Part shown: positions 687 to 50,564 of the stretch, piece after piece | Position numbering within the stretch: the stretch's first letter is position 1 | Layout of the letters: each line of letters begins with the position of its first letter | From: Methanobacteriota archaeon | GTDB lineage: Archaea > Thermoplasmatota > Poseidoniia > Poseidoniales > Poseidoniaceae | NCBI GenBank assembly: GCA_004195635.1 | Contig: PSPT01000003.1 | Span: forward strand, 38,146 to 102,145 | Direction of reading: 5' to 3' | Length of the DNA stretch: 64,000 nt | The notes under the pieces: generated by a model | Told to the model about the DNA's origin: nothing | Databases searched by the model: none | The model's input: only the letters and a program-made list of their open reading frames with translations | Position numbers and translations under genes: made by a program

Positions 687-1634
687 TCAATCTATTCCGA
701 ATTCCTTGACAATTAGAAGTTTGAGAATACTGCGTGCGCTTTGTAAAACAAGACCCGTTGCGATTAAAGATAGACCGAGAACCCCGATCCAAGCAGCGGT
801 TATTCCCGGGCCAATTGTCCCATCGGTAAATTCTCCAACGGAATCAATTGCTCGCAAGCCCATTGCAGCACCTGTTGCAAGCAAACCAAATCCAGGAATG
901 CCGAGAACGATTAGGGGCTTTTTCTGAGAGAGTGTGATTAAGGCGTAGGCGAGGACAGTAAAACCATGGCTTAGAGCGGTGAAACGACTGCCCTTTGGGA
1001 CATCATAGCGGATAACTGTTGGAATTTCAGCAACTTTCAACTCTTTTTCGTTCGCATCTTCCAGAATCTCAAGAGATAATTCCATTCCTTCACAATCAAA
1101 ACGAAGAAGTTCAAGGGCTTTAGCCGAAAAGGCTCTAAATCCACTTTGAGTATCCTTGATATTTAAATCAGAGGAAAGATTTGATGCGGCAGTAATTACC
1201 TTAATGCCGAGACGCCGGTAAGCAGGCATATCTACACTTGTACCGCCATCAATGAAGCGAGAACCGATGACGATATCGGCTTCACCTGAAAGAATTGGCT
1301 CGATGATTTTGGGAATGTCATTTGGGTCGTGTTGGCCGTCACTATCAAGAGTAATTAGGATATCAGCACCCATTTGACGTGATTTTACGAATAGAGTCTT
1401 TAGAGCACCACCATAACCTCTGTTTACACGATGCCGAGTGACTTGAGCGCCACATCTAGTGGCGAGGTGGGCACTTGAATCTGAAGAACCATCATCAATA
1501 CAAAGAACGGTATCGACATGACGAAGGGTTCTGCGAACAATTGTACCAATTGTTTCCTCCTCATTGTACATTGGCATACCAGCGACGATGAGGGGTTTTG
1601 AACTGACTTCATCCACTTCAGGCCCATCTCCCAT
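687..1634 (-). CDS. Glycosyltransferase family 2, dolichyl-phosphate sugar synthase (DPM1/GtrB-like) with C-terminal TM helices
   Basis: N-terminal GT-A motifs: MPMYNEEETIG, CIDDGSSDSS (DxD-type), DSDGQHDP, ADIVIGSRF. Two C-terminal hydrophobic helices are typical of polyprenyl-phosphate glycosyltransferases. Confidence 0.85.
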   Translation of the reverse strand: MGDGPEVDEVSSKPLIVAGMPMYNEEETIGTIVRRTLRHVDTVLCIDDGSSDSSAHLATRCGAQVTRHRVNRGYGGALKTLFVKSRQMGADILITLDSDGQHDPNDIPKIIEPILSGEADIVIGSRFIDGGTSVDMPAYRRLGIKVITAASNLSSDLNIKDTQSGFRAFSAKALELLRFDCEGMELSLEILEDANEKELKVAEIPTVIRYDVPKGSRFTALSHGFTVLAYALITLSQKKPLIVLGIPGFGLLATGAAMGLRAIDSVGEFTDGTIGPGITAAWIGVLGLSLIATGLVLQSARSILKLLIVKEFGID

Positions 1635-18064: not shown

Positions 18065-19501
18065 TCATCCAACATTTGCAACAGTTGGAGTCTGGTCTGC
18101 GTAGAGGAATTCAAGATACGCAGCCCACATCACAAATTCAATACTATTCTCTAATTCCTCTTGGCCTCCAACCATTTGCACCATGTTGTCAAGTGTGTCA
18201 GAGGGACTATGATAGGCATCGTAATCATCATCATATGCGCCAAGATGGAAAATTGTCTGGGCACCGAGATTTCTAAAAGTAACGTGGTCTGAACGACCAA
18301 AAGTATCCTCATGAACGTCAAGAGTCAAATTCTCATGCTCACCCCAGTGCTGGTCACAACCAGCGCCATAAGTGCCATCAATAGTCAAGTTTTTTGGCGC
18401 TTGAAGGATGTCAAAGTGTATGTATTCCATAACTTCTGTAATCGGTTGTTCAACCACCTCTGGGTCTTCATCGGGCCCACTCCAAGCATGGTATGGGTAA
18501 GGCTCACCAGTCGGTTTGAGAGCTGGCCAAGAAACACCCATCATATCCATATTTATGTAAAAGCGTAATTCTTTATCGTGTGGTAAGCAATAATCACAAT
18601 CATTAGTTGCAAAAGCCGAAGAACCTCGCAAGCCTTCTTCTTCAGAAGACCAAAGGCCGAGGAAAGTGTCGCATTCCACTTCCATGTTGACTAATTCGCG
18701 AGCGAAAAGCATCATTGAAACTGTTCCTGCCGTGTTATCGTATGCACCCTCGTAAGTACCTCCTCCTGGTGGGCCTCCCGGTGGAGCGATGTCCATGTGT
18801 GCACCCATGCCCTGCACACACTCGCTTGAGCGTCCGCGCTTCCAAGCGATGATGTTAACCGATTCGGGTTGAGTTGGATTTAGATGATCGATGACGCGTA
18901 AAATATGAGTTTCATAGCCAAGACCTTCAAAGTGTCCTTGGAAAAAAGATACCGCCCTTTCAAATGCTGGATTTGGCGTTCCCATCCATCTGTTAATATA
19001 GCCACCACATTCAGTTGAATCACTGCATACACTTGTGATGAAATCCATTTTTTCAAACCAATCTTTACCAGATATTATTGGGTCGCCAGCAACTATTTCC
19101 AATTTCATTGATTTGCCATTTACTTCAATGCTGACATTTCCAGTGGTTGTTGGTGGAACCATTATTTGTCCGTGGACATCGGTTCCATTTGCTACTATTT
19201 GACCCGAGAGAATGACACTGCCATTAACGATTAGAATTATTATCGCAGGAACTTGGATTGCTATGTCACCCCGCATAATGAAATCATGAGTTTCCCCACT
19301 GCGCAAGGGGTTCTCACCCGCCGGAGATTGCTCAATTTCAAACTCAAACTGCTTCAAAGTGCTTGAATCTTCGCTACCGAAGCAGCCGGATAATGGGGCA
19401 CTTAGCATTATCAATACTAAGAAAACCGGGGCGATAAAGCGCTGGCTCAAAGCAGAGTGCATGATGTGGGCCTTTAGCCTCTGTGTAATGACTCTTTGCA
19501 A
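18065..19501 (-). CDS. Secreted M28-family metallopeptidase (aminopeptidase-like) with N-terminal signal/lipobox-like motif
   Basis: M28 zinc-ligand motifs: AHMD, DNTAG (DN[ST]AG), SEEEGLRGS (EE pair), NMDMMG. N-terminus is a hydrophobic stretch ending in LSGCFGSEDSS. Confidence 0.8.
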   Translation of the reverse strand: MQRVITQRLKAHIMHSALSQRFIAPVFLVLIMLSAPLSGCFGSEDSSTLKQFEFEIEQSPAGENPLRSGETHDFIMRGDIAIQVPAIIILIVNGSVILSGQIVANGTDVHGQIMVPPTTTGNVSIEVNGKSMKLEIVAGDPIISGKDWFEKMDFITSVCSDSTECGGYINRWMGTPNPAFERAVSFFQGHFEGLGYETHILRVIDHLNPTQPESVNIIAWKRGRSSECVQGMGAHMDIAPPGGPPGGGTYEGAYDNTAGTVSMMLFARELVNMEVECDTFLGLWSSEEEGLRGSSAFATNDCDYCLPHDKELRFYINMDMMGVSWPALKPTGEPYPYHAWSGPDEDPEVVEQPITEVMEYIHFDILQAPKNLTIDGTYGAGCDQHWGEHENLTLDVHEDTFGRSDHVTFRNLGAQTIFHLGAYDDDYDAYHSPSDTLDNMVQMVGGQEELENSIEFVMWAAYLEFLYADQTPTVANVG

Positions 19502-19532
19502 ACCGAGTCAATGGAGGATTCAGGTAATCTGG

Positions 19533-19607
19533 TGGGTCCGTCCGGATTTGAACCGGAGTCCAAGCGTCCCAAACGCTCGAGTATAGGCCAAGCTAACCCA
19601 CGGACCC
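19533..19607 (-). tRNA. tRNA-Pro (anticodon UGG)
   Basis: Minus-strand GGGTCCGTGGGTTAGCTTGGCCTATACTCGAGCGTTTGGGACGCTTGGACTCCGGTTCAAATCCGGACGGACCCA. Acceptor GGGTCCG/CGGACCC, anticodon loop UUUGGGA (UGG), T-loop TTCAAAT. Confidence 0.9.
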
Positions 19608-19628: not shown

Positions 19629-19642
19629 CCCCTTTTCATATT
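19629..19642 (-). promoter_or_regulatory. Putative TATA-like box (ATATGAAAAGGGG) 22-35 nt upstream of tRNA-Pro
   Basis: Same AT-rich plus GGG architecture and spacing as upstream of tRNA-Lys(CUU). Confidence 0.3.
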
Positions 19643-20115
19643 CACTCAAGAACAACCCATGAATTATCGCTCTTTCGAAGGATGAAACCTTCGGCTTCAG
19701 CCCAATCAATAACCTCAGTTGGAGTCAGGCTAATGTTGGCATTAAAGCAGGCGGTTGCAAGGTTATCAAAAGTAACGAGGCCATTATCACCCACGGATTC
19801 TCGCAAGATATTTACCGCCATTATTGGGTCGCGCAAGTCTTTCGCATTGGGTTCTTCAAGAGGGGGTAGTTTTGATGCGAAATCAGCACGTAATTGCTCA
19901 GGCATATTAGCTATTGAAATCGCCCGTTGGAGTTCTTGAGGAGAATTGGCATGGCCGACTACCGTAATGTGAATATCGGCAGTTCGCCCACATCTAGTGC
20001 AACGAGCATTTTTGCCCTTTGCTCGGCCATAGCATTGCTTGCATCCTGGGCAAAGCAAAACATCCCAATTTGGCGGTTCCACATCTTCCGAACAATGGCG
20101 ATAGAACTCAAACAT
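19642..20115 (-). CDS. Zinc-ribbon protein with C-terminal winged-helix-like domain, unknown function
   Basis: Four-Cys cluster CPGCKQCYG...CTRCGR near the N-terminus. The C-terminal segment has an alpha/beta pattern compatible with a wHTH. Confidence 0.45.
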   Translation of the reverse strand: MFEFYRHCSEDVEPPNWDVLLCPGCKQCYGRAKGKNARCTRCGRTADIHITVVGHANSPQELQRAISIANMPEQLRADFASKLPPLEEPNAKDLRDPIMAVNILRESVGDNGLVTFDNLATACFNANISLTPTEVIDWAEAEGFILRKSDNSWVVLE

Positions 20116-20160: not shown

Positions 20161-20853
20161 TTACATACTGAAATCAGTACCACTGTCATCCTGTTGACGA
20201 CGGGCACCTGGACGCATTGCTTTAGCAGCAGGCGCTTTGTGGGCAATCTCGGCTTTCTGGAAACCAGGAGAAGCACCACGGCTACGAGTTCGACCAGTTC
20301 CGCGACCTCCGCCGAAATTAAGAGAATTAGGCATAATCAAGGCAGCAATTGCAACACCATGATGATCAGGGCCGGCGGTTACTTCATCGACTGCGACATC
20401 AAATCCAGTAACTTCCAAATCACGGCTGGCTAAGCGGCGTTGTAAATTCCGCTTCAATAATAACTCGGTTTCCTCATAATCCAATTCCGTTGTTAAAGTA
20501 GCAACAATGGCACACTCATCTCCCTCAGGAGTGGTAGCACTTGCCCAAGCAACACCTGCACATGCAGTAGAACCATCATAAGCATTTGCGACCACCAAAT
20601 GGCACTCAACAAGAGAACCCATCGGAAGGTCCTCCGGAGGTACTGCAGAGAATCCCATAGGTAACATTGCACCCTCTACGCGGATGAGACGACTGTCTCC
20701 TAACCCAAGTTCAACCAGTCCTTGGTCATAGGCATCCACTTCATTTTCACCCCACGGGGCAACCGCAGTCATAAGCCAACCAGGGCATTCGGCGGTGGGT
20801 CGGGATGGCGAGGCGGCTGAGAACATAGGTGCACAGACAAGGGAGGGGTTCAT
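20161..20853 (-). CDS. PdaD-like protein (pyruvoyl-dependent arginine decarboxylase homologue) lacking the pyruvoyl-forming Ser, with RG-rich C-terminal tail
   Basis: Alignable to archaeal PdaD: [31 protein letters not shown] versus PdaD [31 protein letters not shown], and [10 protein letters not shown] versus PKLPMGALV. The SS self-cleavage site is replaced by EG. The C-terminus adds [13 protein letters not shown]... See findings. Confidence 0.6.
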   Translation of the reverse strand: [230 protein letters not shown]

Positions 20854-21181
20854 GAAACCGGTGGTTCACGAGCCCCTAATGCAGGCGATTTCGCGAGGTT
20901 TATTGTTCGGCGGTGGCGGAATCCTTCTGCTGGTTGCGGCGCTCCTCAATATTTCAGATTCAACTCAATTGTTGATTACTGTATTAATTATTTATGCTGC
21001 GGCACTTGTATTTGTAATTCTTTTTGGAAATAATCAAACACCTAACGAGAGCGAAACTGCGAATGTTGGCGTTCTTGGACACAACCTAAGCAATCAGGTA
21101 AATACTCAGGATTACGATGGGAGTGAAGAAAATCAGTTGGTTGATCCTTTGGATAATGGATTTGACATTCCACTCCTATAA
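20852..21181 (+). CDS. Small membrane protein (two TM helices), unknown function
   Basis: The track ORF starts at 20795 and overlaps the PdaD-like gene. The internal Met at about 20852 precedes the first hydrophobic helix. Confidence 0.4.
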   Translation: MKPVVHEPLMQAISRGLLFGGGGILLLVAALLNISDSTQLLITVLIIYAAALVFVILFGNNQTPNESETANVGVLGHNLSNQVNTQDYDGSEENQLVDPLDNGFDIPLL

Positions 21182-21262: not shown

Positions 21263-23353
21263 TTAAGAATAGGTGAATGTGTGTTCAATATCCATTGCCC
21301 ATAGTTCTATGCCGCTGCTTCCATCATCCGCATCAAAGTAGATTGTAGCACCGACCAATATTGCTTCCATGCCATATCCAGGGACACTGTCGCCACTCCC
21401 GCTGTTGATATCAGCCACCTGCCAAGTTGAAGAGGAGGTGGTGCCATGCGCCCATAATTCGTAGCCGCTGCTTCCATCATTCGCACCGAAGTAGAGCGTA
21501 TCACCGACTAATATTGACATGTAAATTCCAACTTGACTGCTGCCGGTGCCGCTGAAGATATCAGCCACCTGCCAAGTTGAGGAGGTGGAGGTGTCATGCG
21601 CCCACAGTTCGCTACCACTACTTCCATCGTCCGCACTGAAGTAGATTGTATCACCGACTAATTTAGCCATAATTCTTGATTGGGCTGGGGTCCATCCGGG
21701 GTGACTGCCATTGCTCCCGCTATTGATATCAGCCACCTGCCAAGTTGAGGAGTTGGAGGTGTCATGCGCCCATAGTTCGTTGCCGCTGCTTCCATCATCC
21801 GCATCAAAGTAGATTGTATCACCGACCAATATTGCTTCCATGTGTTGTCCGGGATAACTGCCCGTAAGGCTGCCGCTGTTGATATCAGCCACCTGCCAAG
21901 TTGAGGAGTTGGAGGTGTCATGCGCCCACAGTTCCTTGCCGCTGCTTGCAGTATTCGCACTGAAGTAGAGCGTATCACCGACTAATATTGCCATGTAACT
22001 TCCAACTTGACTGCTGCCGGTGCCGCTGAAAATATCAGCCGCCTGCCAAGTTGAGGAGTTGGAGGTATCATGCGCCCACAGTTCTCTGCCGCTGCTTCCA
22101 TCTTGAGCACTGAAGTAGATTGTATCACCAACTAATATTGACATGTGGTCACCGGGGTCACTGTCGCCACTCCCACTGTTGATATCAGCTGCCAGCCAGG
22201 TTGAGGAATTGGAGGTGTCATGCGCCCACAGTTCCTTGCCGCTGCTTGCAGTATTCGCACTGAAGTAGATTGTATCGCCGACCAAAATTGATATGTCTTG
22301 TCCGATATAACTTTGAAGAGAGCCGCCGAAATCAAGCACCTGCCAAGTTGAGGAGTTGGAGGTATTATGTGCCCATAGTCCGCCACTCGCACTGAAGTAG
22401 AGCGTTTTGCCAACCAATAGTGACATGTAATATCCGGGGTCACTGTCGCCACTCCCACTGTTGATATCAGCTGCCAGCCAAGTTGAGGAGTTGGAGGTAT
22501 CATGCGCCCATAGTTCCGCACCGTTGCTATATTCAAACGCACTGAAGTAGAGCGTGTCACCAACCAATATCTTCATGCCCAAAGAGCCGGGATAACTGTT
22601 GGTGGTGAAACCATTACCGTTATTGATATCGTCAATTTGCCAGACTACGGGTTTGCTGCAATAGGTTGTTGTATAGTCAACTTCTCCTGATTCAAGTACG
22701 CTATTTTGGGCAGTCCCACCACCATCGCCGTCGTCAAGACCTTGCATCGTCACTCGCCCACCGGCAGTGCATCCTAATGATGCTGCTGGGGCTGAAATGC
22801 TGGTAAGCATGATGTTGGGAGAAGCGCTTCCATTTGTGCCGCCATTTTGACCAGGTATTCCTTGTGGTCCTGCGGCTCCATTACAAATATCTACCGACAT
22901 AATAACTTCAGTCATGTCGAGAACTCCATCTCCATTACTATCATCACCGATTTCAAAGGAGTTTCCTCCGGTAGTGCAAGTAGTGCTTGATAGGATTCTA
23001 ATTAGGGTGGAAATACCGTCAGTTCCATTTGCACCATCTGCACCGGCGACACCATCTGCACCGGCGACACCATCTTGACCTGAAATATCAATTACTTGCC
23101 ATCCGCTACTTGTGCAAACTTGAAATTCTGAATCTGCATCAATATAATACAATCGGCCGTTTGTCGTTGAATCACAAGTAGGTAAATCAGATGCAGTAGA
23201 GGCAAAATGAACTTGCCAGTCATCTAAAGTATCTGTTGGCGTGTCATCTGGATTATCATCGACTGGATCATCGCCACCGAAGCATCCTGTAAGCGGGGCA
23301 AGCAAAAGTATCAGGCATAAAAGCAGAGGTGTTGTGTTCTTCATGTGCCGCAC
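21263..23353 (-). CDS. Secreted ELWxxDGT-repeat beta-propeller protein with lipobox-like N-terminus and short collagen-like (GVAGAD) repeats
   Basis: Signal-like N-terminus ending LTGCFGGDDP. About nine tandem 50-aa repeats with the consensus ELWAHDTSNSSTWQVADINSGSGDS.PG..M.ILVGDTIYFSA.DGSSG, which matches the ELWxxDGT repeat type. Confidence 0.75.
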   Translation of the reverse strand: MRHMKNTTPLLLCLILLLAPLTGCFGGDDPVDDNPDDTPTDTLDDWQVHFASTASDLPTCDSTTNGRLYYIDADSEFQVCTSSGWQVIDISGQDGVAGADGVAGADGANGTDGISTLIRILSSTTCTTGGNSFEIGDDSNGDGVLDMTEVIMSVDICNGAAGPQGIPGQNGGTNGSASPNIMLTSISAPAASLGCTAGGRVTMQGLDDGDGGGTAQNSVLESGEVDYTTTYCSKPVVWQIDDINNGNGFTTNSYPGSLGMKILVGDTLYFSAFEYSNGAELWAHDTSNSSTWLAADINSGSGDSDPGYYMSLLVGKTLYFSASGGLWAHNTSNSSTWQVLDFGGSLQSYIGQDISILVGDTIYFSANTASSGKELWAHDTSNSSTWLAADINSGSGDSDPGDHMSILVGDTIYFSAQDGSSGRELWAHDTSNSSTWQAADIFSGTGSSQVGSYMAILVGDTLYFSANTASSGKELWAHDTSNSSTWQVADINSGSLTGSYPGQHMEAILVGDTIYFDADDGSSGNELWAHDTSNSSTWQVADINSGSNGSHPGWTPAQSRIMAKLVGDTIYFSADDGSSGSELWAHDTSTSSTWQVADIFSGTGSSQVGIYMSILVGDTLYFGANDGSSGYELWAHGTTSSSTWQVADINSGSGDSVPGYGMEAILVGATIYFDADDGSSGIELWAMDIEHTFTYS
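21290..22600 (-). repeat. Tandem coding repeats of about 150 bp (around 9 copies, high nucleotide identity) encoding the ELW propeller blades
   Basis: Recurrent DNA strings such as gatatcagccacctgccaagttgaggag and catgcgcccacagttc... at roughly 150-bp spacing. They generate spurious same-strand ORFs in another frame (21307-21504, 21658-21978, 22132-22563). Confidence 0.8.
23044..23090 (-). repeat. 18-bp tandem repeat (2.5 copies) encoding GVAGAD collagen-like triplets
   Basis: ccatctgcaccggcgaca repeated exactly twice, then a partial copy. Confidence 0.8.
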
Positions 23354-41241: not shown

Positions 41242-41541
41242 TCACTCGAGATTTGTAGCCAAGGAAAGCAAATCACTTTTTCCAGCATCAAGGATACAGA
41301 GAGTGCTTACCGAGAAAGGTTTAGCACAAGCAGTTCCAAGGTCACGGTTGACCATTAGAACGCGGTGCTTTACCACATCAGGGTGGCGTGCGTGTAACTC
41401 ATCGATGTAATCTTGAGGGCAATTTGCTGCCAAAATTACAAGTTTTGCTTCGCCTCGTGCACATGCATCCATTGTTTGACGCTGTCCGAAAAGTAGTGAA
41501 CCACTACTTATTGCTGTCTTTAGTTGTCTTGTCATATCCAT
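41242..41541 (-). CDS. rpl30e: Ribosomal protein L30e
   Basis: About 99 aa with KLVILAANCP and LGTACAKPFSVSTLCILD motifs characteristic of the L30e/L7Ae fold. Canonical position downstream of rpoA''. Confidence 0.9.
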   Translation of the reverse strand: MDMTRQLKTAISSGSLLFGQRQTMDACARGEAKLVILAANCPQDYIDELHARHPDVVKHRVLMVNRDLGTACAKPFSVSTLCILDAGKSDLLSLATNLE

Positions 41542-41587
41542 AATTATTCCTCCATACTCTGCATTTGCTTCTCATGGTTTGAGTGTT

Positions 41588-43150
41588 TCAGTTCTCCCGA
41601 GGGACATAGTACAGTTCAACACTACCTGTTCCCAAAGAGATTGGCTGACCAACAATGATGTTTTCTGCAACACCAGTTAAGCGATCACGCTCTCCTACAA
41701 TTCCTGCTCTTAGCAAGTGATTAACAGTAACTTCGAAAGCAGCACGGGCAAGAATACTGTGCTTTGTTCCAGACACACCGTGGCGGCCGATTGCTCGGAC
41801 TGCACCTTCGCTGGTCATTACATCAGCGACCATCAACAAGTGGCGGTCATCAACTTCCAAACGGGCTCCTTCAAGCGTCAACTTCAATTCATTTACTATT
41901 GCTTGACGAGCGGCTTCAATACCCAAGAAATCATAAATTTCCATGATATTATTTGTATATGTACGGCTTCGGTCAATTCCATCCATGTCAGAAACGCGGG
42001 TGAGATTACTTCCTATAGTAGAGAGATAATACTCACCTGTTTCATCATCAAGTTGAACATTGGCTCGTTGAATACTTGGGACGCCTTTTAATCGCAGGTC
42101 CTTTACCTTGTCTTCAAGTTGGAGCAATTCTGTATAAGAAGGGATTACATCTTTATCAGATTCAGTTTGTCGTCCTGGAACGATTGTCAATACCTTTGGA
42201 TTGCTTTCCTTATCTGCTTCGATGTAAAGGCGGAGGGCACGACCTAACTTGTCACGGACTTCGTCAGCAGTCATATTTCTCTGCTTCAGATTTCCCTTGT
42301 GCAGGTTCAAAACCAAACGGCGTTGTGCTACGTCGGTATTTAAGTCGGCAATATTCTTTGTAAGAGTTACTTCAAGTGCTGCTGCCATTTTCTTGGCTTC
42401 AAGTGCATTCTTTGAATCATCTTCAGATCTCTTTGAATCATCCAAATAAATTGTCATTGTTGGAGTCTGTGGTATCTTTCGAGCATCAACAACTTCGATA
42501 ATACGAGGCAAACCTTGAGTCACGTTAACTGTCGCAACACCCGCATAGTGGAAAGTACGCATAGTCATCTGAGTACCGGGTTCTCCAATTGATTGTGCTG
42601 TAAGAATTCCTGCTGCTTCGTGCGGGTCAATACGTGCGCGAGCAAAAGCAACTCGGGCTTGCTCAATGATAGATTCAGCCTGCTTCTTGGTAATCTTGAC
42701 CTTGTCTCTAGCAATAACTGCCTTTGTTAGGTCTGATAGAACTCGCTCGGTTAACATTGGGCTACCGGTGGCTTCATCAGCCTTTTCAAGGGCATTGAAA
42801 ATGGGGTTTTCAACAAATTCATGCAAATTTCCAATCATCTTTCGCTCATAGTCATAGGACTCCAACTCCTGCTCCACCTTAGGGCGAACAGTTCGTCGCT
42901 TTCGTCGGCGAACGACAGTAAGATTTCCTCCATCAATTGAACTTGAACGGGCAGACTTGGTTGCATTAACAATAATTTGATGCACCTTTGCAGCAGTTTC
43001 GCTATCTGTTTCGCAGATTTTTGCGATTTCCTGAGCAGTAAGAACTTTTACATTATCCCACTTTCTGTCATCTGCAAGAAGATGAGCAAATTCTTCAGGT
43101 ACAAGCATATCCATTAGTTTCTTCTTGGTTGCACTCTTTACTACCATCAA
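41588..43150 (-). CDS. rpoA2: DNA-directed RNA polymerase subunit A'' with an extra N-terminal domain of about 120 aa
   Basis: Conserved A'' core [28 protein letters not shown], and so on to the C-terminus. The core starts at about residue 185 instead of about 60. The N-terminal extension is paralogous to the N-terminus of the RpoH gene product (see findings). Confidence 0.95.
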
Positions 43151-46100
43151 ACTTCACCTCCATCGGTTTCTGCTGGGCTATCCTCATAACCGCCAAGGTC
43201 ATCTTCATCGCGGTTATATGAATCACGTTCTTCGGAACGCTTCTTTGGGCCAATTACTTTATCGATAATTACATCAAAGTTAACGGGGTTACCGTGGTTA
43301 GAACGAGTTGGGTCGATACCATCCTCTCCGTATTCGAATTGAATGATACGATCTGCGGTATTTCGTACCGACAACTTTTCATCCTTGAAAACTTTTAAGT
43401 CATCCATTGCGTTAATTAGACGGCGTTGCATATAACCAGACTTACTGGTACGAACCGCAGTATCAACTAACGATTCACGACCTGAAACTGAAAGCATAAA
43501 GAATTCAGTAGGCTGCAAACCACGTTTGAAGGAACTGCTGATGAAACCTTTTTGTCGAGCTCCTTTGTCTCCTCGCTTGAAGTGTGTCAGTACACGGTCT
43601 TGGTATCCGCGCTCTAATCTCTTTCCACGCACCTTTGCCTGACCAATAGAACCAGCCATCATGGTCAAGTTGTCCATTGAACCACGAGCGCCAGAAACAG
43701 CCATGCTAACTGCAGCGTTATCTTCGCCGCTTGCGAGTAATTCTTCCTTCGCAACATCACCAGTTTTTCCCTTTTGCTTGTCAAGAATCATCATGATGTT
43801 TTCCTCAAGAGTTTCCTTTAAAGTGCGGCCAGGACGGGCTTCATAACCTCTTCCGGTTTTTCCGTACTTTGCCATTTCCTCTCTTACGAGTTCACGAGCA
43901 TCTTCATTGATTTGCTCAATTTGTTCAAGAGCACCAGGAGTTAAATCCTCATCATCAATACCTGTTGTGAAACCTAACGCAGTACATGCAGCAATAGTGA
44001 TTTTTGTCATTTCGTTGAGGAATTTTGCACCTTCGTCTGGTCCATTTGTTTGAACAACAGCATCCAATAGACTTCCATCTTCAGCACCAATCGCTCTCTT
44101 GTCAAGAGTACCTGAAAGGCTGCGGCCGTTAACCACAACTTCCTCTCCACTTCGATTATTAAATCGTAGACTGATGTTTTCGGGAACAATTAGGCCTAGC
44201 AGATCGTGTCCACTAAATCCCTTTACTCCTTCCTTTAGAATCATCTTTGGCATTTTTCCTACATAGCCGATTCTTCCGATGATTTCCATAGCAGTTGATT
44301 CATCAACCCAAGTGTCGCCGCGTGTAAGTAGGTAAGCACCAGAAATGTGGTCGTGTATTCCACCAATTACTGCTCCACCATAACGGGGGGTTAAGATGTG
44401 TTCTTGGACTCTCATCAAAATTTGAGCCTCAGCACGGGCCTCTTCTCCCTGAATAACGTGCAAATTCATCTCATCACCATCAAAATCCGCGTTGTATGGA
44501 GTACATACTGCTAGATTGAAACGGAATGTTCTACCTGGCATTACACGAACTTCGTGAACCATCATAGACATTCGGTGTAGAGATGGCTGCCGGTTAAAGA
44601 TAGCAACATCACCATCGATTAGGTGACGTTCAACGATTAGACCGGGCTTTGGCAAACCATCTTGATCTACAGTAGATAGACGGTCATCTGTTCGTGAAGG
44701 GAAACCATTAGTTTCAGGTGAACCACAGTGAGGGCAAGTAACTTCCAAATGTTCAGGATAGTCGTCATCTGGATTAGCCAAATCCCACTTCCAGCGATAG
44801 TGCAAGATAGCACGAGGGTCTTCTTCGGGGAGAATCTGACGCTTGTCATCTTCACCACGGAGGTTTAGTAGAGTTGCCTTTTCGTCAACAATAAAGTAAT
44901 CCTCAGACTCTGGCTCTCCACCAATAGTAGTTTCAACCCGGCGAGTCATCTGTTTGATAACAAGTCCTGGTAGGAAGTTAGGTGCAGGTAGAACGCTGTG
45001 AAGGTCATGGCGCAATGTTGTTTCTTCCATGCAATCTGGGTTGAAACAACGGAAACCGGAATTGATTAGACGGCTGCGGTCATTAATTCTCACACGGCGA
45101 CCATCATTTCGAAGAACATAGTTTACACCTGGGTGCTTTTCTGGACCCTTGAAAATCATCTGGCGCAATTCCTCTCGGTTACGGCGGGTAACACGAATAG
45201 GCACAGTAAGTTCACGGGCAACCCATTCAGGTACACCTACTTCGTTGATGCTTAGGAATGGGTCTGGTGAGATAACAGAACGGGCACAGAAATTAACACG
45301 CTTACCGGACAAGTTACTACGGAAACGTCCTTCCTTACCTTTGAGACGTTGTGTGAGCGTCTTTAATGGGCGGCCAGAACGGTGTCTGGCCGGTGGGATT
45401 CCACTTGTTTGGTTGTCAAAGTAAGTTGTAATGTGGTATTGCAGTAATTCCCACAAATCCTCAACAATTAGTTGCGGAGCACCAGCATCACGATTTTCAC
45501 GAAGGCGCTGATTAATTCGAAGAACGTCAACTAACTTGTGAGTCAAATCATCCTCAGAACGGTCTCCACTATCTAGGGTGATAGAAGGTCGAACTGTAAT
45601 TGGTGGTACTGGTAATACCCGCATTACAACCCATTCAGGGCGGTTTGAACGGTCCATGCCGAGGAAGATTAGGTCATTTGGTGGAATTCGTTCCAGCCAT
45701 TCACGAACATCGCGAGCATTTAATTTCTTTTCAGTGATCTTGCTTGCTCCCTTTACATCCATCTTTTCCTTGAAAGTTGTTGGCTTATCCAATTGAATCT
45801 TACCTTGGCTTGCTCCGCAATGCATACAAACCGCACGCTTTGCAGAGGCGGTTAACTTCTCAATATCCTTAATCGCCTTGGCGAATTCTTTAGAACCTAC
45901 ACCGTGCTTCAAATTGACATCATTCACTCGGGCTCGGTAGTAATCTTGCTCAGATAATTCAGGATTTGAAGGGTGAGTTCCTGCTGCTTCGTGCAAAAGA
46001 ACACGGCTACAAACATTACAAGTCACCTTTAGAGCAGTCTTGATTAGATTCACGAAACCGATGTGAGTGACTGGAAGTTCAAGTTGGATGTGCCCAAAGT

Positions 46101-46332
46101 GACTAGGGCATTCATCGTACTTATTTCCACATGTATCACAACGAATCCCCGGCTCAATAACACCCATCTTAGGGTCCATCAATCCTTGGCGGAATGCATG
46201 TCCGTCATCTTTGTAAGTATCTGCTGTCTTAACTTCAACTGCAGACATTTTACGGATTTCATTTGGGTCCATTAAGTTGAACCTAATGCTTGAAATTCGC
46301 TTTGGAATCATGGTAATTGAACTTTGCTTCAT
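43147..46332 (-). CDS. rpoA1: DNA-directed RNA polymerase subunit A' (1061 aa, with acidic C-terminal extension)
   Basis: N-terminal zinc-binding clamp [17 protein letters not shown] and the catalytic [10 protein letters not shown] motif. The stop overlaps the rpoA'' start (ATGA). Confidence 0.95.
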
Positions 46333-49300
46333 CTTGAATCCTCCAGCTCTAAGCGCATGGCCACACCTAACGATTTCATTTCGTCAAGTAATAACTTAAA
46401 TGCGTAAGAAGTTTGTACTTCGTGAACTTCAGCACCTGGGCCGAGTACCGGTGACACATAGGTGCGTCTTCGCCAATCATACCAAGCGATATGCCCAGAT
46501 TCTGAACATACCAGCAATTTTTCTCCATCCGACTGATCGAGTAAACGGTCCTTGATGACCATTGATGCGCCGTGAGCAATCAAACAATCACGCTCCATTT
46601 CACCAAATCTTAGTCCACCCTGACGAGCACGACCTTCTGTTGGTTGACGAGTTAGGATTTGCACACGACCACGGCTTCTAGCGTGGATTTTACTGCTTAC
46701 CATGTGGTGCAACTTCTGATAATAAATGACACCAACAAAAATATCTACGGGGTATGCCACTCCAGTTTCACCATTTATCATGACTTCACGACCAGTGTGG
46801 TTGAAGCCATTTCGCACTAATCCTTCACGGAGGCTGGTTTCCTTCTCACCGCGGAACGCAGTTCCATCGATGAAGCGTCCTTCAAGACTACCTACTTTGC
46901 CAGCAATCATTTCCATTACGTGAGCAACAGTCATTCTACTTGGGATAGCGTGAGGATTGATAATTAGGTCTGGGATGACTCCATCTCGAGTGAAAGGCAT
47001 ATCCTCTTGATTGACCAAGCGACCAATAACTCCCTTCTGTCCGTGACGACTAGAGAATTTGTCACCTACTTCAGGAATCTTATGTGAACGAACGGTTAGG
47101 CGTACGAGGCGTCCGCTATCCAAACTCTCAGTGAGATAAACATTGTCAACATAGCCCTTTTCACCATGGCGAATTGCCATGGAAGATTCACGTCGTTCTT
47201 GGGCTTGTAAGAAGGCACCAGCGCCGGTTTCTTCGAGGAAACGAGGAGGGCTTGTCTTTCCAACAACAACATCTCCGCCTTCGAGATAAACTTCCGGGGT
47301 CGGCAATCCATCATTTTCAAGGTGTTCATAGCAGCTAAGGGGTTTTAATCCCTTGATTTCTTCCTTCCCTGTTCCGGGAATTTCAATTTCATCGACTTGT
47401 CCACCTGGGAATCTACGGCGTTCAGCATTGTATGTACGCATGAAGGTTGAACGGCCCATTGCACGGTCAATACTTGACTTATTCATTGCAACTGCGTCCT
47501 GCATGTTATATCCGTGGTGAGACATAATAGCGACAACGAAATTCTGACCTCCGGGGCGCTCATTGAAGTTTGTAGTCTTCATAGCACGAGTTTGCGTAAT
47601 GGAACGTTGTGGGTAGTGGAGTAAGTGCATTCGGGTATCTGGGCGAAGGCGGTAGTTTGCACTCGGCAAACCAAGACTCTGCTTGACCATTGCTGTACCA
47701 CCAGTAACACGTGGGGTAGAATTGTGTTCGGGGTAAGGAATTAGACTTGCACAAACTCCAAGAATTAGTTGAGGGTCAATTTCAACGTGAGTGAACTCAC
47801 TGTCAAAGTTTAGAGGTAAGGAAAAAGATTCCTCTACCCATTCACCATTTGAAAGTTGAACTTTTGCAGTAACCTTTGCTTCAGTAGCGCCATCTTCACC
47901 AAGATTATCCCAACGGACATTCTCAGGAGCGATTGGGCGCTTCAACTTGGGAGTCAAATTAGGAAGATTGAATGGTTTAGGTGAAACATAGAGATCTTCT
48001 TCTTCCTCAGCATCAATCCACTCTACTATACCCTTGTGTAGAAGATCACGGAAGGTAATTTCACCAGCCTTTAAACCTTCCAAATCATCATTTGTGAGTA
48101 AGGGTGAACCATCGCGAAGAATCAATAATGGGCGCAGAATACGTCCCTTGTCAGTACTAATGAAAATATCACTGTTTGCAGCATCATAACGAATACTTAC
48201 TTCAGGGCGGATTGCTCCACGACGACGTGCATTCTTGAATTGGCGAACTAAACTTTTACCGCGCTTGTGGACTCCGTAAATGTCACCATTCACGTGAACA
48301 CGGTCTCCATCAGTCCAGTCCTCTGGCTGGAAAACATCGAATTCGTCTAGTTGTTCACGAACTTCCTCAACATTTGCTTCTTCTGAGATATCAACCATCA
48401 AAGCAGCATTCTTTACAAGACCACAGTTCTGTCCTTCAGGGGTTTCGTTGGGACATAGGCGACCCCATTGTGTTGGGTGCAAATCACGTGCTTCAAAGTG
48501 AGGTTGACTGCGAACAAGGGGGCTTGTTACGCGACGCATGTGGCTCAATGCCGAGGTATAGGTAGTTCTGTCAAGTAATTGACTGACACCACTTCGTCCA
48601 CCGACCCAGTTACCTGTTGCCAGTGCATGCATAATTTTGGAAGTCAAAACATCTGGGCGTAAACAGGAAGTGATTTTCAATTCACGCTTTCGGTTGTGGT
48701 GGCGCTCAAGTTGGTACTTCAAATCACGAGCAAGTTGGTTAAGTGAAACACGGAATAAGTCCTCGAATAAGTCACCTGCAAGACGAACACGCTTGTTTGC
48801 ATAGTGGTCTTTATCATTTGGCCCTTTGTCTGAAATAGCCATATCCAATACTTGGCGGACGATACGTCCTAGGAATACTGCCTTTTTCTTTCGGTCTTCA
48901 TAATCGCCACCTAGGTGAGGTAGTAATTCACGGTCAAGTAGTTGGGCAACTCTTGCTTCACGGTATTCTTTCTGCTGTCCAGCAGCGAATTTCTTCTCAA
49001 GCCATTGATGAGCATCATCGGTAGATTCTACTTCATATTCCTTGTTGTCCTTCACTTCGTTGATGTTTGCTACGATGAACTTGAAGGTTTCAGTTTCTCC
49101 AGCAATAGCTTGGAAAATCTCCTGGTCATTCTCAATACCAAGCGCACCCATCAAAAGCACAACTGGTATTGCAGTAGTCCCTGCAGTGCTGATTTTAACC
49201 ATCAACATACCATCACGGCGCTTTTCAACAGAAAGTGGTTTTCGCACACCATCTTTTTGTGAGAATATCTTAGCCATCTCGGTCTTCTTCTTGTATCTCT

Positions 49301-49928
49301 TATTGAGTTCAACAGTAACTCGGTTTGGCGCTAAGTCTTCCATTGAAATGAGAACTCTTTCTGTTCCATTGATAATGAAATATCCACCTTGGTCAAGAGG
49401 ATCTTCTCCTTTTTCTCTCCAAAGGCGGAAAGCAGTTTCCTTGTCATCTTCATTTGTATTAGGATGCAAGACGCGGTCATTTAGCAAGTGAGAGGGGTGT
49501 AGGTTACAACGGCGGCTTCGCACCATGGTTGGTAAATTACCAATAGCAACTCCTTTTTCAACAGGAGATGGGATTCCATCACGGAAAATAGTGAAATCAA
49601 TTGTAACTGGAGACATGTATGTCAACTTTCGCAGTCGGCATTCCATTGGTGAAGAATCGTGCTCACTACCGTTTGCTTCTCGGATAACTGGAGAACCAAG
49701 TGTAATGTTACGTAGGCGAATAAATATTTCTTGGTCGATTACGTCGAGTTTGATAACTCCACCTTCTTCATCCTCAAAAATATCGTCGGTACCAACACGG
49801 ATTCCACGAACAATCCTTTCCATTCTGGAATTGCGGTTGCTACTTGAGGGTATACAGTCATCGTATGACGCTACTTGGTGGTTCACTAGTGAACGCTCTT
49901 TGAAATATGCTTCAATAATTTCTTGCAT
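46329..49928 (-). CDS. rpoB: DNA-directed RNA polymerase subunit B (unsplit, 1199 aa)
   Basis: Rpb2-type motifs throughout (GQKGVIGRLV..., C-terminal Zn-site region). B' and B'' are fused in one ORF. The stop overlaps the rpoA' start. Confidence 0.95.
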   Translation of the reverse strand: MQEIIEAYFKERSLVNHQVASYDDCIPSSSNRNSRMERIVRGIRVGTDDIFEDEEGGVIKLDVIDQEIFIRLRNITLGSPVIREANGSEHDSSPMECRLRKLTYMSPVTIDFTIFRDGIPSPVEKGVAIGNLPTMVRSRRCNLHPSHLLNDRVLHPNTNEDDKETAFRLWREKGEDPLDQGGYFIINGTERVLISMEDLAPNRVTVELNKRYKKKTEMAKIFSQKDGVRKPLSVEKRRDGMLMVKISTAGTTAIPVVLLMGALGIENDQEIFQAIAGETETFKFIVANINEVKDNKEYEVESTDDAHQWLEKKFAAGQQKEYREARVAQLLDRELLPHLGGDYEDRKKKAVFLGRIVRQVLDMAISDKGPNDKDHYANKRVRLAGDLFEDLFRVSLNQLARDLKYQLERHHNRKRELKITSCLRPDVLTSKIMHALATGNWVGGRSGVSQLLDRTTYTSALSHMRRVTSPLVRSQPHFEARDLHPTQWGRLCPNETPEGQNCGLVKNAALMVDISEEANVEEVREQLDEFDVFQPEDWTDGDRVHVNGDIYGVHKRGKSLVRQFKNARRRGAIRPEVSIRYDAANSDIFISTDKGRILRPLLILRDGSPLLTNDDLEGLKAGEITFRDLLHKGIVEWIDAEEEEDLYVSPKPFNLPNLTPKLKRPIAPENVRWDNLGEDGATEAKVTAKVQLSNGEWVEESFSLPLNFDSEFTHVEIDPQLILGVCASLIPYPEHNSTPRVTGGTAMVKQSLGLPSANYRLRPDTRMHLLHYPQRSITQTRAMKTTNFNERPGGQNFVVAIMSHHGYNMQDAVAMNKSSIDRAMGRSTFMRTYNAERRRFPGGQVDEIEIPGTGKEEIKGLKPLSCYEHLENDGLPTPEVYLEGGDVVVGKTSPPRFLEETGAGAFLQAQERRESSMAIRHGEKGYVDNVYLTESLDSGRLVRLTVRSHKIPEVGDKFSSRHGQKGVIGRLVNQEDMPFTRDGVIPDLIINPHAIPSRMTVAHVMEMIAGKVGSLEGRFIDGTAFRGEKETSLREGLVRNGFNHTGREVMINGETGVAYPVDIFVGVIYYQKLHHMVSSKIHARSRGRVQILTRQPTEGRARQGGLRFGEMERDCLIAHGASMVIKDRLLDQSDGEKLLVCSESGHIAWYDWRRRTYVSPVLGPGAEVHEVQTSYAFKLLLDEMKSLGVAMRLELEDSR

Positions 49929-49940
49929 CTTAATTCCTCC

Positions 49941-50564
49941 TTAATTTGTTCCCTCTACGATAAGGCGGTAAGCCACTGAAGTGCCTGCAGAAGGGCTCTT
50001 GCGAATCACTCGCAAAACTCGGTCGGCTAACCATCCAGCAGGGAGTGGGGTGTGCCCCTCATCTTCCAGCGATTTTGCCATGTCTTCCTTTTCGGCTATT
50101 TCTTTGATCACTTGAATGACGGGGTCGGTCATTAGGATCTTTGGGAGTAATTCTTTTCGCAGGCGATGCTCGCCTGTTTCCTCATCTATTTCACCGAGGT
50201 TCCATGGTGCTAGTGCATCTTCTTCCTCTTCCTCAGGAACCAATTCTTGATGAGGGACGATTACGTGATTAAGAACATTAAACTTGGTAAGCCCCATTGG
50301 GAAGTCATCAATGTCAACTGCGCGCGCATTGATAGTAATTTTCTTGGATGCCTTTTTACGGCGGTTAGTGGTAAGTTCACGAATAACATTCATGATGTTT
50401 GCAAAGCGGTCATCTTCTTTGCTCATTCCAACGGCTTTTGCGACCTCGTCAATTGACATCTGCTTGATATCAGCCATGTTTCGATCAGTAGCGAGTTTGT
50501 GAGCGTGTTCCTCAGCAATCCCCATTTCTTGCAGTCGCTTTTTTGTTGCGCTCTTTACCACCAT
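49941..50564 (-). CDS. rpoH: DNA-directed RNA polymerase subunit H (Rpb5-like) with N-terminal extension of about 100 aa and an internal insertion
   Basis: C-terminal region FNVLNHVIVPHQELVPEEE...LPKILMTDPVIQ...RVLRVIRKSPSAGTSVAYRLIV matches RpoH/Rpb5 (HxLVPxH and ...R.S.tAG..v.YR). Typical RpoH is about 80 aa; this ORF is 207 aa. Confidence 0.9.
   Translation of the reverse strand: MVVKSATKKRLQEMGIAEEHAHKLATDRNMADIKQMSIDEVAKAVGMSKEDDRFANIMNVIRELTTNRRKKASKKITINARAVDIDDFPMGLTKFNVLNHVIVPHQELVPEEEEEDALAPWNLGEIDEETGEHRLRKELLPKILMTDPVIQVIKEIAEKEDMAKSLEDEGHTPLPAGWLADRVLRVIRKSPSAGTSVAYRLIVEGTN

Follow-up and report, generated by a model that had tools for sequence, protein, structure and literature searches.

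What becomes of a pyruvoyl-dependent arginine decarboxylase (PdaD, or PvlArgDC) once the serine that gives rise to its cofactor is gone? A gene on the reverse strand of a genome of Ca. Poseidoniales, archaea of Marine Group II, raises this question. In the 64-kb window (the whole stretch of DNA that was analysed, 64,000 nucleotides), its maximal open reading frame in the ORF list spans 20161..20853 (-) and encodes 230 amino acids. A sequence-only reading had taken the product for a PdaD paralogue in which Glu-Gly replaces the Ser-Ser self-cleavage site and which carries an arginine/glycine-rich tail, and had suggested either a pseudoenzyme repurposed for binding or an enzyme of different chemistry. 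Here we examine these proposals by profile and structure comparison, conservation across the order, gene context and the literature on agmatine synthesis.

The coding sequence is likely to start inside the maximal frame, at 20826, because close relatives (215-228 aa) begin at the second Met. This gives a probable coding sequence at 20161-20826 (-) of 221 amino acids plus stop, and residues are numbered from this Met throughout. The longest ORFs of this gene and of a divergent neighbor both begin inside a palindromic TCATGA at 20851-20854, with ATG codons at 20852 (+) and 20853 (-). If translation begins where homologues indicate (20879 and 20826), the divergent intergenic region is only 52 nt long, so that the promoters would overlap coding sequence or the mRNAs would be leaderless. 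A sigma-70 promoter and terminator scan is uninformative for an archaeon.

A remote homologue of PdaD

The proposed homology to PdaD is weak by sequence and firm by profile-profile and fold comparison. The NCBIfam model TIGR00286 aligned to the protein with an E-value of 1.7e-7 and a score of 31.1 bits, failing the curated cut-off of 106.95. HMMER matched PDB chains 1n2m and 2qqd at an E-value of about 1e-5. Pfam PF01862 gave no match to the protein at E<=1 and weakly matched 21 of 42 relatives. When a profile of 42 family members was aligned with a profile of 19 canonical PdaDs using hhalign, the two were related with a probability of 99.4% (E 1.4e-21, 141 columns).

An AF2 model of the protein had a mean pLDDT of 77.6, with most of the core between 84 and 96. 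Foldseek superimposed this model on M. jannaschii PdaD (2qqd/1n2m) with a TM-score of 0.88, an rmsd of 2.1 Å and an E-value of 4.5e-14; pyruvoyl histidine decarboxylase was the next fold match after PdaD. The predicted PdaD-fold core, an alpha-beta-beta-alpha sandwich, comprises residues 14-166 (20329..20787 (-)), as delimited by pLDDT, Foldseek and hhalign, and has a net charge of about -14. The order of its secondary-structure elements is identical to that of PdaD (PF01862/TIGR00286; M. jannaschii MJ0316, PDB 1mt1/1n2m/2qqd), and the two families share Asp35, Gly42, Gly70, Ala91 and Arg134 in PdaD numbering. As judged from sequence profiles and the predicted structure, the protein is thus confirmed as a true but remote PdaD homologue.

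Loss of the self-cleavage site and catalytic residues

The region equivalent to the PdaD self-cleavage site reads V50-E51-G52-A53-M54-L55-P56 (20659..20679 (-)) in place of the canonical V-S-S-I-L/M-P. The motifs quoted for this region are present in the translation, and no Ser, Thr or Cys stands at the site in HMMER, hhalign or MAFFT-merge alignments, which bears out the replacement of Ser-Ser by Glu-Gly. The methods place the residues differently: HMMER pairs Ser52-Ser53 with Glu-Gly, whereas hhalign and MAFFT-merge set Glu at Ser52, treat Gly as a one-residue insertion and set Ala at Ser53. G52 and A53 are invariant in the family alignment, and the position of Ser52 varies freely among Q, K, E and H. 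A site motif of [QKEHR]-G-A-[MF]-L-P occurs in 117 of 119 matched family proteins, the other two having V or R for G, and in all 82 genome loci. The Ser-Ser pair is present in 19/19 canonical PdaD sequences.

Further residues of the active site differ as well. In the M. jannaschii enzyme, as reported by Tolbert and colleagues (2003), S53 is the pyruvoyl precursor, processing and catalysis depend on N47, S52, S53, I54 and E109, and agmatine is held by Asp35 together with backbone carbonyls of the adjacent protomer. Invariant across the 19 canonical PdaDs are D35, A41, N47, S52, S53, G70, A91, G105, E109 and R134. In our alignments, the family has an invariant arginine, Arg46 (20689..20691 (-)), at the position of the self-processing Asn47; the position of the catalytic Glu109 is Thr110 here (20497..20499 (-)) and T, K or S in 80, 33 and 4 members, respectively. 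G105 is replaced by Ala, and D35, G70, A91 and R134 are kept. Asp34 (20725..20727 (-)), invariant in the family and in canonical PdaD, is the equivalent of Asp35, which we take to be the residue that binds the guanidinium group of the substrate. Going by these reported roles in the M. jannaschii enzyme, the residues for the chemistry have been lost, and the single side chain that is known to bind substrate has been retained.

With Ala or Gly in place of Ser53, and with Asn47 and Glu109 also lost, the earlier expectation that the protein cannot self-process in the manner of PdaD, and so forms no pyruvoyl group by serinolysis, holds up. We consider it very probable from the alignments that the protein has neither a pyruvoyl cofactor nor arginine decarboxylase activity, and we predict that it does not cleave itself into beta and alpha chains. 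It scores below the family threshold and lacks both the Ser-Ser site and the Asn47/Glu109 pair, and by its sequence is not a functional PvlArgDC member. In its wild-type form it resembles the non-processing S53A mutant of M. jannaschii PdaD (PDB 1n2m). It differs from PdaD in the x-G-A that stands for Ser-Ser, in the Asn47 to Arg and Glu109 to Thr/Lys exchanges and in an extra basic tail of 53 residues, and its gene has different partners. We also considered whether Cys75, Cys105 and His155 form a new metal site and rejected this, as these residues also occur in canonical PdaDs.

An order-wide family under purifying selection

Relatives of the protein are encoded in 232 species-level genomes in a search of species representatives, and the nearest of its protein relatives bear the names Poseidoniales or Poseidoniaceae. 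All 80 of the 80 fetched loci were of Poseidoniales type, from Poseidoniales (both families) or unclassified euryarchaeal MAGs, and two contigs with bacterial labels share the archaeal synteny. These two, CAXQWT010000051.1 and CALDQY010000278.1, carry the full Poseidoniales gene order and are deposited as Salipiger bermudensis and Rhodobiaceae bacterium; the names most likely reflect binning contamination. A profile search of 1.84 billion representatives found the family to be an isolated island: the score drops from 413 bits to 56 bits where the first canonical PdaD appears, and Ser-Ser was present in each of the full-length canonical matches that we inspected. The search also turned up a protein of 316 aa in which G-V-[GS]-W-x-x-C-C-P-P-[DN]-G-N-K-x-A-I is repeated five times and which weakly matches a 20-residue segment of the profile (E 1e-4). 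No relatives were found in a scan of viral contigs.

Members from across the order are 64-70% identical and have 80 invariant columns, and 67 positions are invariant in this family only. By the Nei-Gojobori method, dN/dS is 0.024 in the core and 0.12 in the tail. These data bear on two sceptical readings, namely that the gene is decaying into a pseudogene or that the serine is missing because of an error in sequencing or assembly. Nothing beyond the missing serine itself favors either idea. The site motif recurs in about 200 independent sequences, its presence in 117/119 proteins and 82/82 loci excluding a local error at the EGAM codons; the frame is intact in 232 species genomes, and dN/dS lies between 0.02 and 0.12, which refutes the proposal. 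Because strong purifying selection maintains a gene that has lost its catalytic residues, the label of pseudoenzyme or repurposed fold fits. Core conservation as high as this would suit a real enzyme too.

A basic tail with discrete motifs

The C-terminal extension (residues 167-221, 20164..20328 (-)) is absent from canonical PdaD and is predicted to be disordered, with pLDDT below 50 at residues 172-174 and 184-221. The 53 residues after the last strand contain 13% R and 17% G and have a net charge of +6, compared to about -14 for the core; family-wide, tails contain 12% R and 13% G. There are four RG/GR dipeptides here against a family median of two. The dense RG run is partly specific to this lineage, and discrete motifs rather than RG-richness are what the family conserves.

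Three such motifs stand out. G178-R-T-R181 (20284..20295 (-)) represents a family motif G-x-[V/I/T]-R found in 117/117 tails, with G178 and R181 invariant. Residues K197 to 207 (20206..20238 (-)) correspond to a family motif KAPAAP-A-x-RPG, of which KAPAAP is present in 106 and RPG in 105 of 117 tails. The protein ends in T-D-F-S-M (20164..20178 (-)), the local form of x-D-F-[S/T]-L-COOH, a motif of 106/117 tails in which D218 and F219 are invariant. The most divergent members keep G-x-[V/I/T]-R and the C-terminal motif, with the endings SFQL, SFAL or NFSL, and lack KAPAAP. Short linear motifs set in a flexible basic linker point to docking sites more than to a generic tail that binds nucleic acids through RGG repeats. 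We considered the PIP-box, HbYX and class-I PDZ-ligand motifs as candidate readings of DF[S/T]L, and it seems to fit the consensus of none of them.

A conserved three-gene module

Two small genes accompany the PdaD-like gene. Downstream, at 19642..20115 (-), lies a gene for a 157-aa protein in which homology and an AF2 model predict a basic CxxC...CPHCG zinc ribbon, a helix with the conserved sequence A-N-x-P-E-x-L-R and, at the C-terminus, an acidic winged-helix domain. In about 74 of 83 loci it is the next gene downstream, separated from the PdaD-like gene by -4, 9 or 35 nt (here by 45 nt), and the two are probably co-transcribed in the same operon. Loci that seemed to lack the partner gene, and seeming tandem duplicates, proved to be ORF-calling artefacts. 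The partner is 138-157 aa long across loci and has about 25-30% identity among relatives, compared to 64-70% for the PdaD-like protein. Neither a Pfam family nor a named homologue was found for it in our searches, and Foldseek with the AF2 model, which was built from database homologues, returned only weak winged-helix matches (Fur/Zur, MecI, IclR, MCM, cullin, Rpa2 WH). The winged helix is acidic (median net charge -5) and the zinc ribbon basic; for an acidic winged helix, protein binding fits better than classical DNA binding, as far as charge can indicate.

On the other side, at 20795..21181 (+) with a likely start at 20879 from alignment, is a divergent gene that adjoins the PdaD-like gene in 68/83 loci and whose small product has two predicted membrane helices. 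The product has no Pfam family. Its C-terminus is conserved as L-P-D-P-x-x-x-G-F-[D/E]-[I/T]-P-[L/M]-L, with L-P-D-P-x-x-x-G-F-D-I-P-L-L as the main form, and may be similar to the peptide D-I-P-x-F-L at the C-terminus of bacterial FtsZ. Divergent loci on contigs of 52% and 63% GC keep the arrangement. In locus L086 the membrane-protein gene adjoins at 915-1205 (-), and in L087 a similar upstream ORF is truncated by the contig end. The PdaD-like, zinc-ribbon/winged-helix and two-helix membrane genes form a conserved three-gene module. From gene order alone, we infer that the PdaD-like protein may associate with the products of its neighbors.

The wider neighborhood is made up of housekeeping genes, including aCPSF1, a proteasome subunit, a ZPR1-like gene, aminoacyl-tRNA synthetases and glycosyltransferases. 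No polyamine-metabolism genes were found in it, and the flanking genes give no pathway clue. A tRNA-Pro (UGG) with an encoded CCA end, called by ARAGORN at 19530-19607 (-), lies directly downstream of the zinc-ribbon gene; in an E-value scan of Rfam it was below the gathering threshold, with only a sub-threshold tRNA/tmRNA clan match. An antisense ORF over this tRNA recurs in other loci and is an artefact. Upstream of the module, the aCPSF1-proteasome synteny that is conserved elsewhere is interrupted in this genome by two genes, at 21263-23353 (-) and 18065-19501 (-), whose products have the lipobox-like N-termini L-T-G-C-F-G-G and L-S-G-C-F-G-S. One of these proteins has 696 aa, about ten repeats of '(E)LWAHDTSNSSTWQVADINSGSG.S.PG...LVGDT(I/L)YFSA' and a match to DUF7151; the other is an M28 peptidase. 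Elsewhere in the window, the region 41242-50564 (-) looks like an RNA polymerase operon from the sizes and order of its ORFs (1199, 1061 and 520 aa, followed by ribosomal-protein-like and NusA-like small ORFs), and an archaeal RNase P RNA is present.

Agmatine synthesis in the order

Li et al. 2023 (PMC10407285) verified arginine decarboxylase activity biochemically for SpeD homologues (SpeDA) of a Ca. Poseidoniales MAG and of an MGII/III fosmid, in which the genes are clustered with speB and speY. SpeDA is a neofunctionalised S-adenosylmethionine decarboxylase with a fold unlike that of PdaD, and the genomes with such anomalous SpeD homologues are reported to have neither the canonical arginine decarboxylase SpeA nor the ornithine decarboxylase SpeC (PMC10407285).

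Tblastn found no second PdaD homologue or canonical pdaD within the 64-kb window. Among the named canonical PdaD matches there were no Poseidoniales, most matches being without a taxon; the named canonical PdaDs nearest to the family came from Altiarchaeota, Thermofilum and Thermoplasmata. The term paralogue used in the sequence-only reading is therefore not established. Because canonical pdaD is absent from the window, because Poseidoniales are absent from the named canonical matches, and because the characterised arginine decarboxylase of the order is SpeD-derived and of another fold, the gene seems to be a displaced orthologue more than an additional copy. We infer that PdaD may have been displaced non-orthologously by SpeDA, and its scaffold then repurposed.

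Possible roles of the PdaD-like protein

We put the chance that the protein is a non-catalytic binding or scaffold descendant of PdaD at roughly 60%, and regard it as similarly probable that it plays its non-enzymatic part within the three-gene module. With SpeDA taking over arginine decarboxylation, the PdaD scaffold would have been repurposed for binding or scaffolding. The protein would stay uncleaved and probably trimeric, like the S53A proenzyme, and its tail motifs, together with a basic helix that is invariant and specific to the family, could engage both module partners. The pocket around the retained Asp35 (Asp34 here) may hold a guanidinium group, which could be that of free arginine, of agmatine or of an invariant tail arginine acting as a built-in pseudo-substrate. 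That the old pocket still recognises guanidinium or arginine is a tentative idea, on balance doubtful. A more elaborate proposal, which we consider decidedly unlikely, is that the three genes encode a Poseidoniales-specific membrane-associated complex in which the dead trimer acts as an arginine/agmatine sensor; movement of the tail arginine into or out of the pocket would switch the binding of DF[S/T]L to the zinc-ribbon/winged-helix partner and the membrane anchor.

The protein could instead act mainly in nucleic-acid binding, a role close to the RNA binding suggested in the sequence-only reading; the basic Arg/Gly tail, perhaps jointly with the partner's zinc ribbon, would contact RNA or DNA, and the trimer would serve only for oligomerisation. 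The net charge of +6 of the tail, its family-wide content of 12% R and 13% G, the basic zinc ribbon and the information-processing genes nearby (aCPSF1, tRNA synthetases and tRNA-Pro) are consistent with such a role. However, RG/RGG density is low in most members, with a median of two RG/GR dipeptides, and the conserved positions cluster in discrete motifs and in a hydrophobic peptide at the C-terminus, a pattern typical of protein docking. The core is also very acidic (-14) and conserved beyond the need of a mere oligomerisation scaffold, and the winged helix of the partner is acidic, so that we hold a primary function in nucleic-acid binding to be unlikely. Alternatively, the protein could still be an enzyme, with a pyruvoyl-free chemistry built from residues that are invariant in this family, such as Glu74, His76, Arg46, Glu27/Asn28 and His155. 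The unusually strong constraint on the core (dN/dS 0.024, 67 family-only invariant positions) is the sole factor in the data that favors an active enzyme, along with the general knowledge that some annotated pseudoenzymes prove active. Against this, searches of Pfam, NCBIfam and the PDB revealed no cofactor-binding or catalytic motif, the position of Ser52 is variable (Q/K/E/H) and that of Glu109 is T, K or S, and no metabolic genes are linked to the locus. We judge an active enzyme to be improbable.

The protein might also be a prozyme-like regulatory subunit in the manner of the dead AdoMetDC paralogue in trypanosomes: the dead protomer would assemble with a catalytically active PdaD from another locus and contribute Asp35 to an active site formed between the two. 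The active sites of PdaD reportedly lie between protomers, with Asp35 coming from the neighboring one (Tolbert et al. 2003), Asp34 is invariant in the family, and dead paralogues are generally known to recur as regulators of polyamine synthesis. Such a subunit would need a partner, yet no canonical pdaD is present within the 64-kb window, Poseidoniales are absent from the named canonical PdaD matches, and the family has its own conserved partners. The verified arginine decarboxylase of the order does not share the PdaD fold, and SpeA is reported to be missing from such genomes (PMC10407285). Going by the 64-kb window and the named matches, a regulatory subunit of this kind seems very improbable, and a non-catalytic binding or scaffold protein is the reading that we prefer.

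Relation to known systems

Dead paralogues are well represented in polyamine metabolism, in which the Trypanosoma brucei AdoMetDC prozyme, antizyme inhibitor and the deoxyhypusine synthase prozyme are examples. Like these, the PdaD-like protein has a fold of the pyruvoyl/polyamine pathway, has lost catalytic and processing residues and appears to be under selection for a non-catalytic role. Unlike these, which pair with an active paralogue in the same cell, it has no such counterpart evident in the 64-kb window; its fold family differs, and it has its own tail and operon partners. Degenerate domains are also found in the C-terminal SpeDC portion of the Victivallis vadensis SpeD-SpeDC fusion and in the C-terminal half of eukaryotic AdoMetDC (PMC10407285). 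In both cases the degenerate domain is joined to an active enzyme that has the AdoMetDC fold, whereas the PdaD-like protein stands alone and has the PdaD fold.

Within the PdaD family, the homologue aaxB is inactivated in Chlamydia trachomatis serovars (PMC2720952), and there too a PdaD-family gene no longer gives an active, cleaved enzyme. The changes in aaxB are recent nonsense or single missense substitutions that amount to gene decay (PMC2720952), while the PdaD-like family is ancient, extends through the whole order and evolves under strong purifying selection. Full-text literature searches returned no description of a Ser-less PdaD family, of a dead PvlArgDC member kept by selection or of the three-gene module. 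The order-wide pseudoenzyme is thus apparently undescribed; the concept of the dead paralogue in the polyamine pathway is already established.

Implications

In the surface ocean, Marine Group II ranks among the most abundant archaea. JGI gene names and precomputed PF01862 matches label the gene as a pyruvoyl-dependent arginine decarboxylase. Because some annotation pipelines apply this label, metabolic reconstructions could wrongly credit agmatine synthesis to a protein that is very probably unable to make its cofactor. The analysis also defines a conserved three-gene module in an uncultured lineage. If the sensor complex outlined above were real, a decarboxylase displaced by SpeDA would have been turned into a signalling device. 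Taken with the published SpeD-derived enzyme of the order, the family suggests that PdaD underwent non-orthologous displacement and, instead of being lost, was remodelled into something else.
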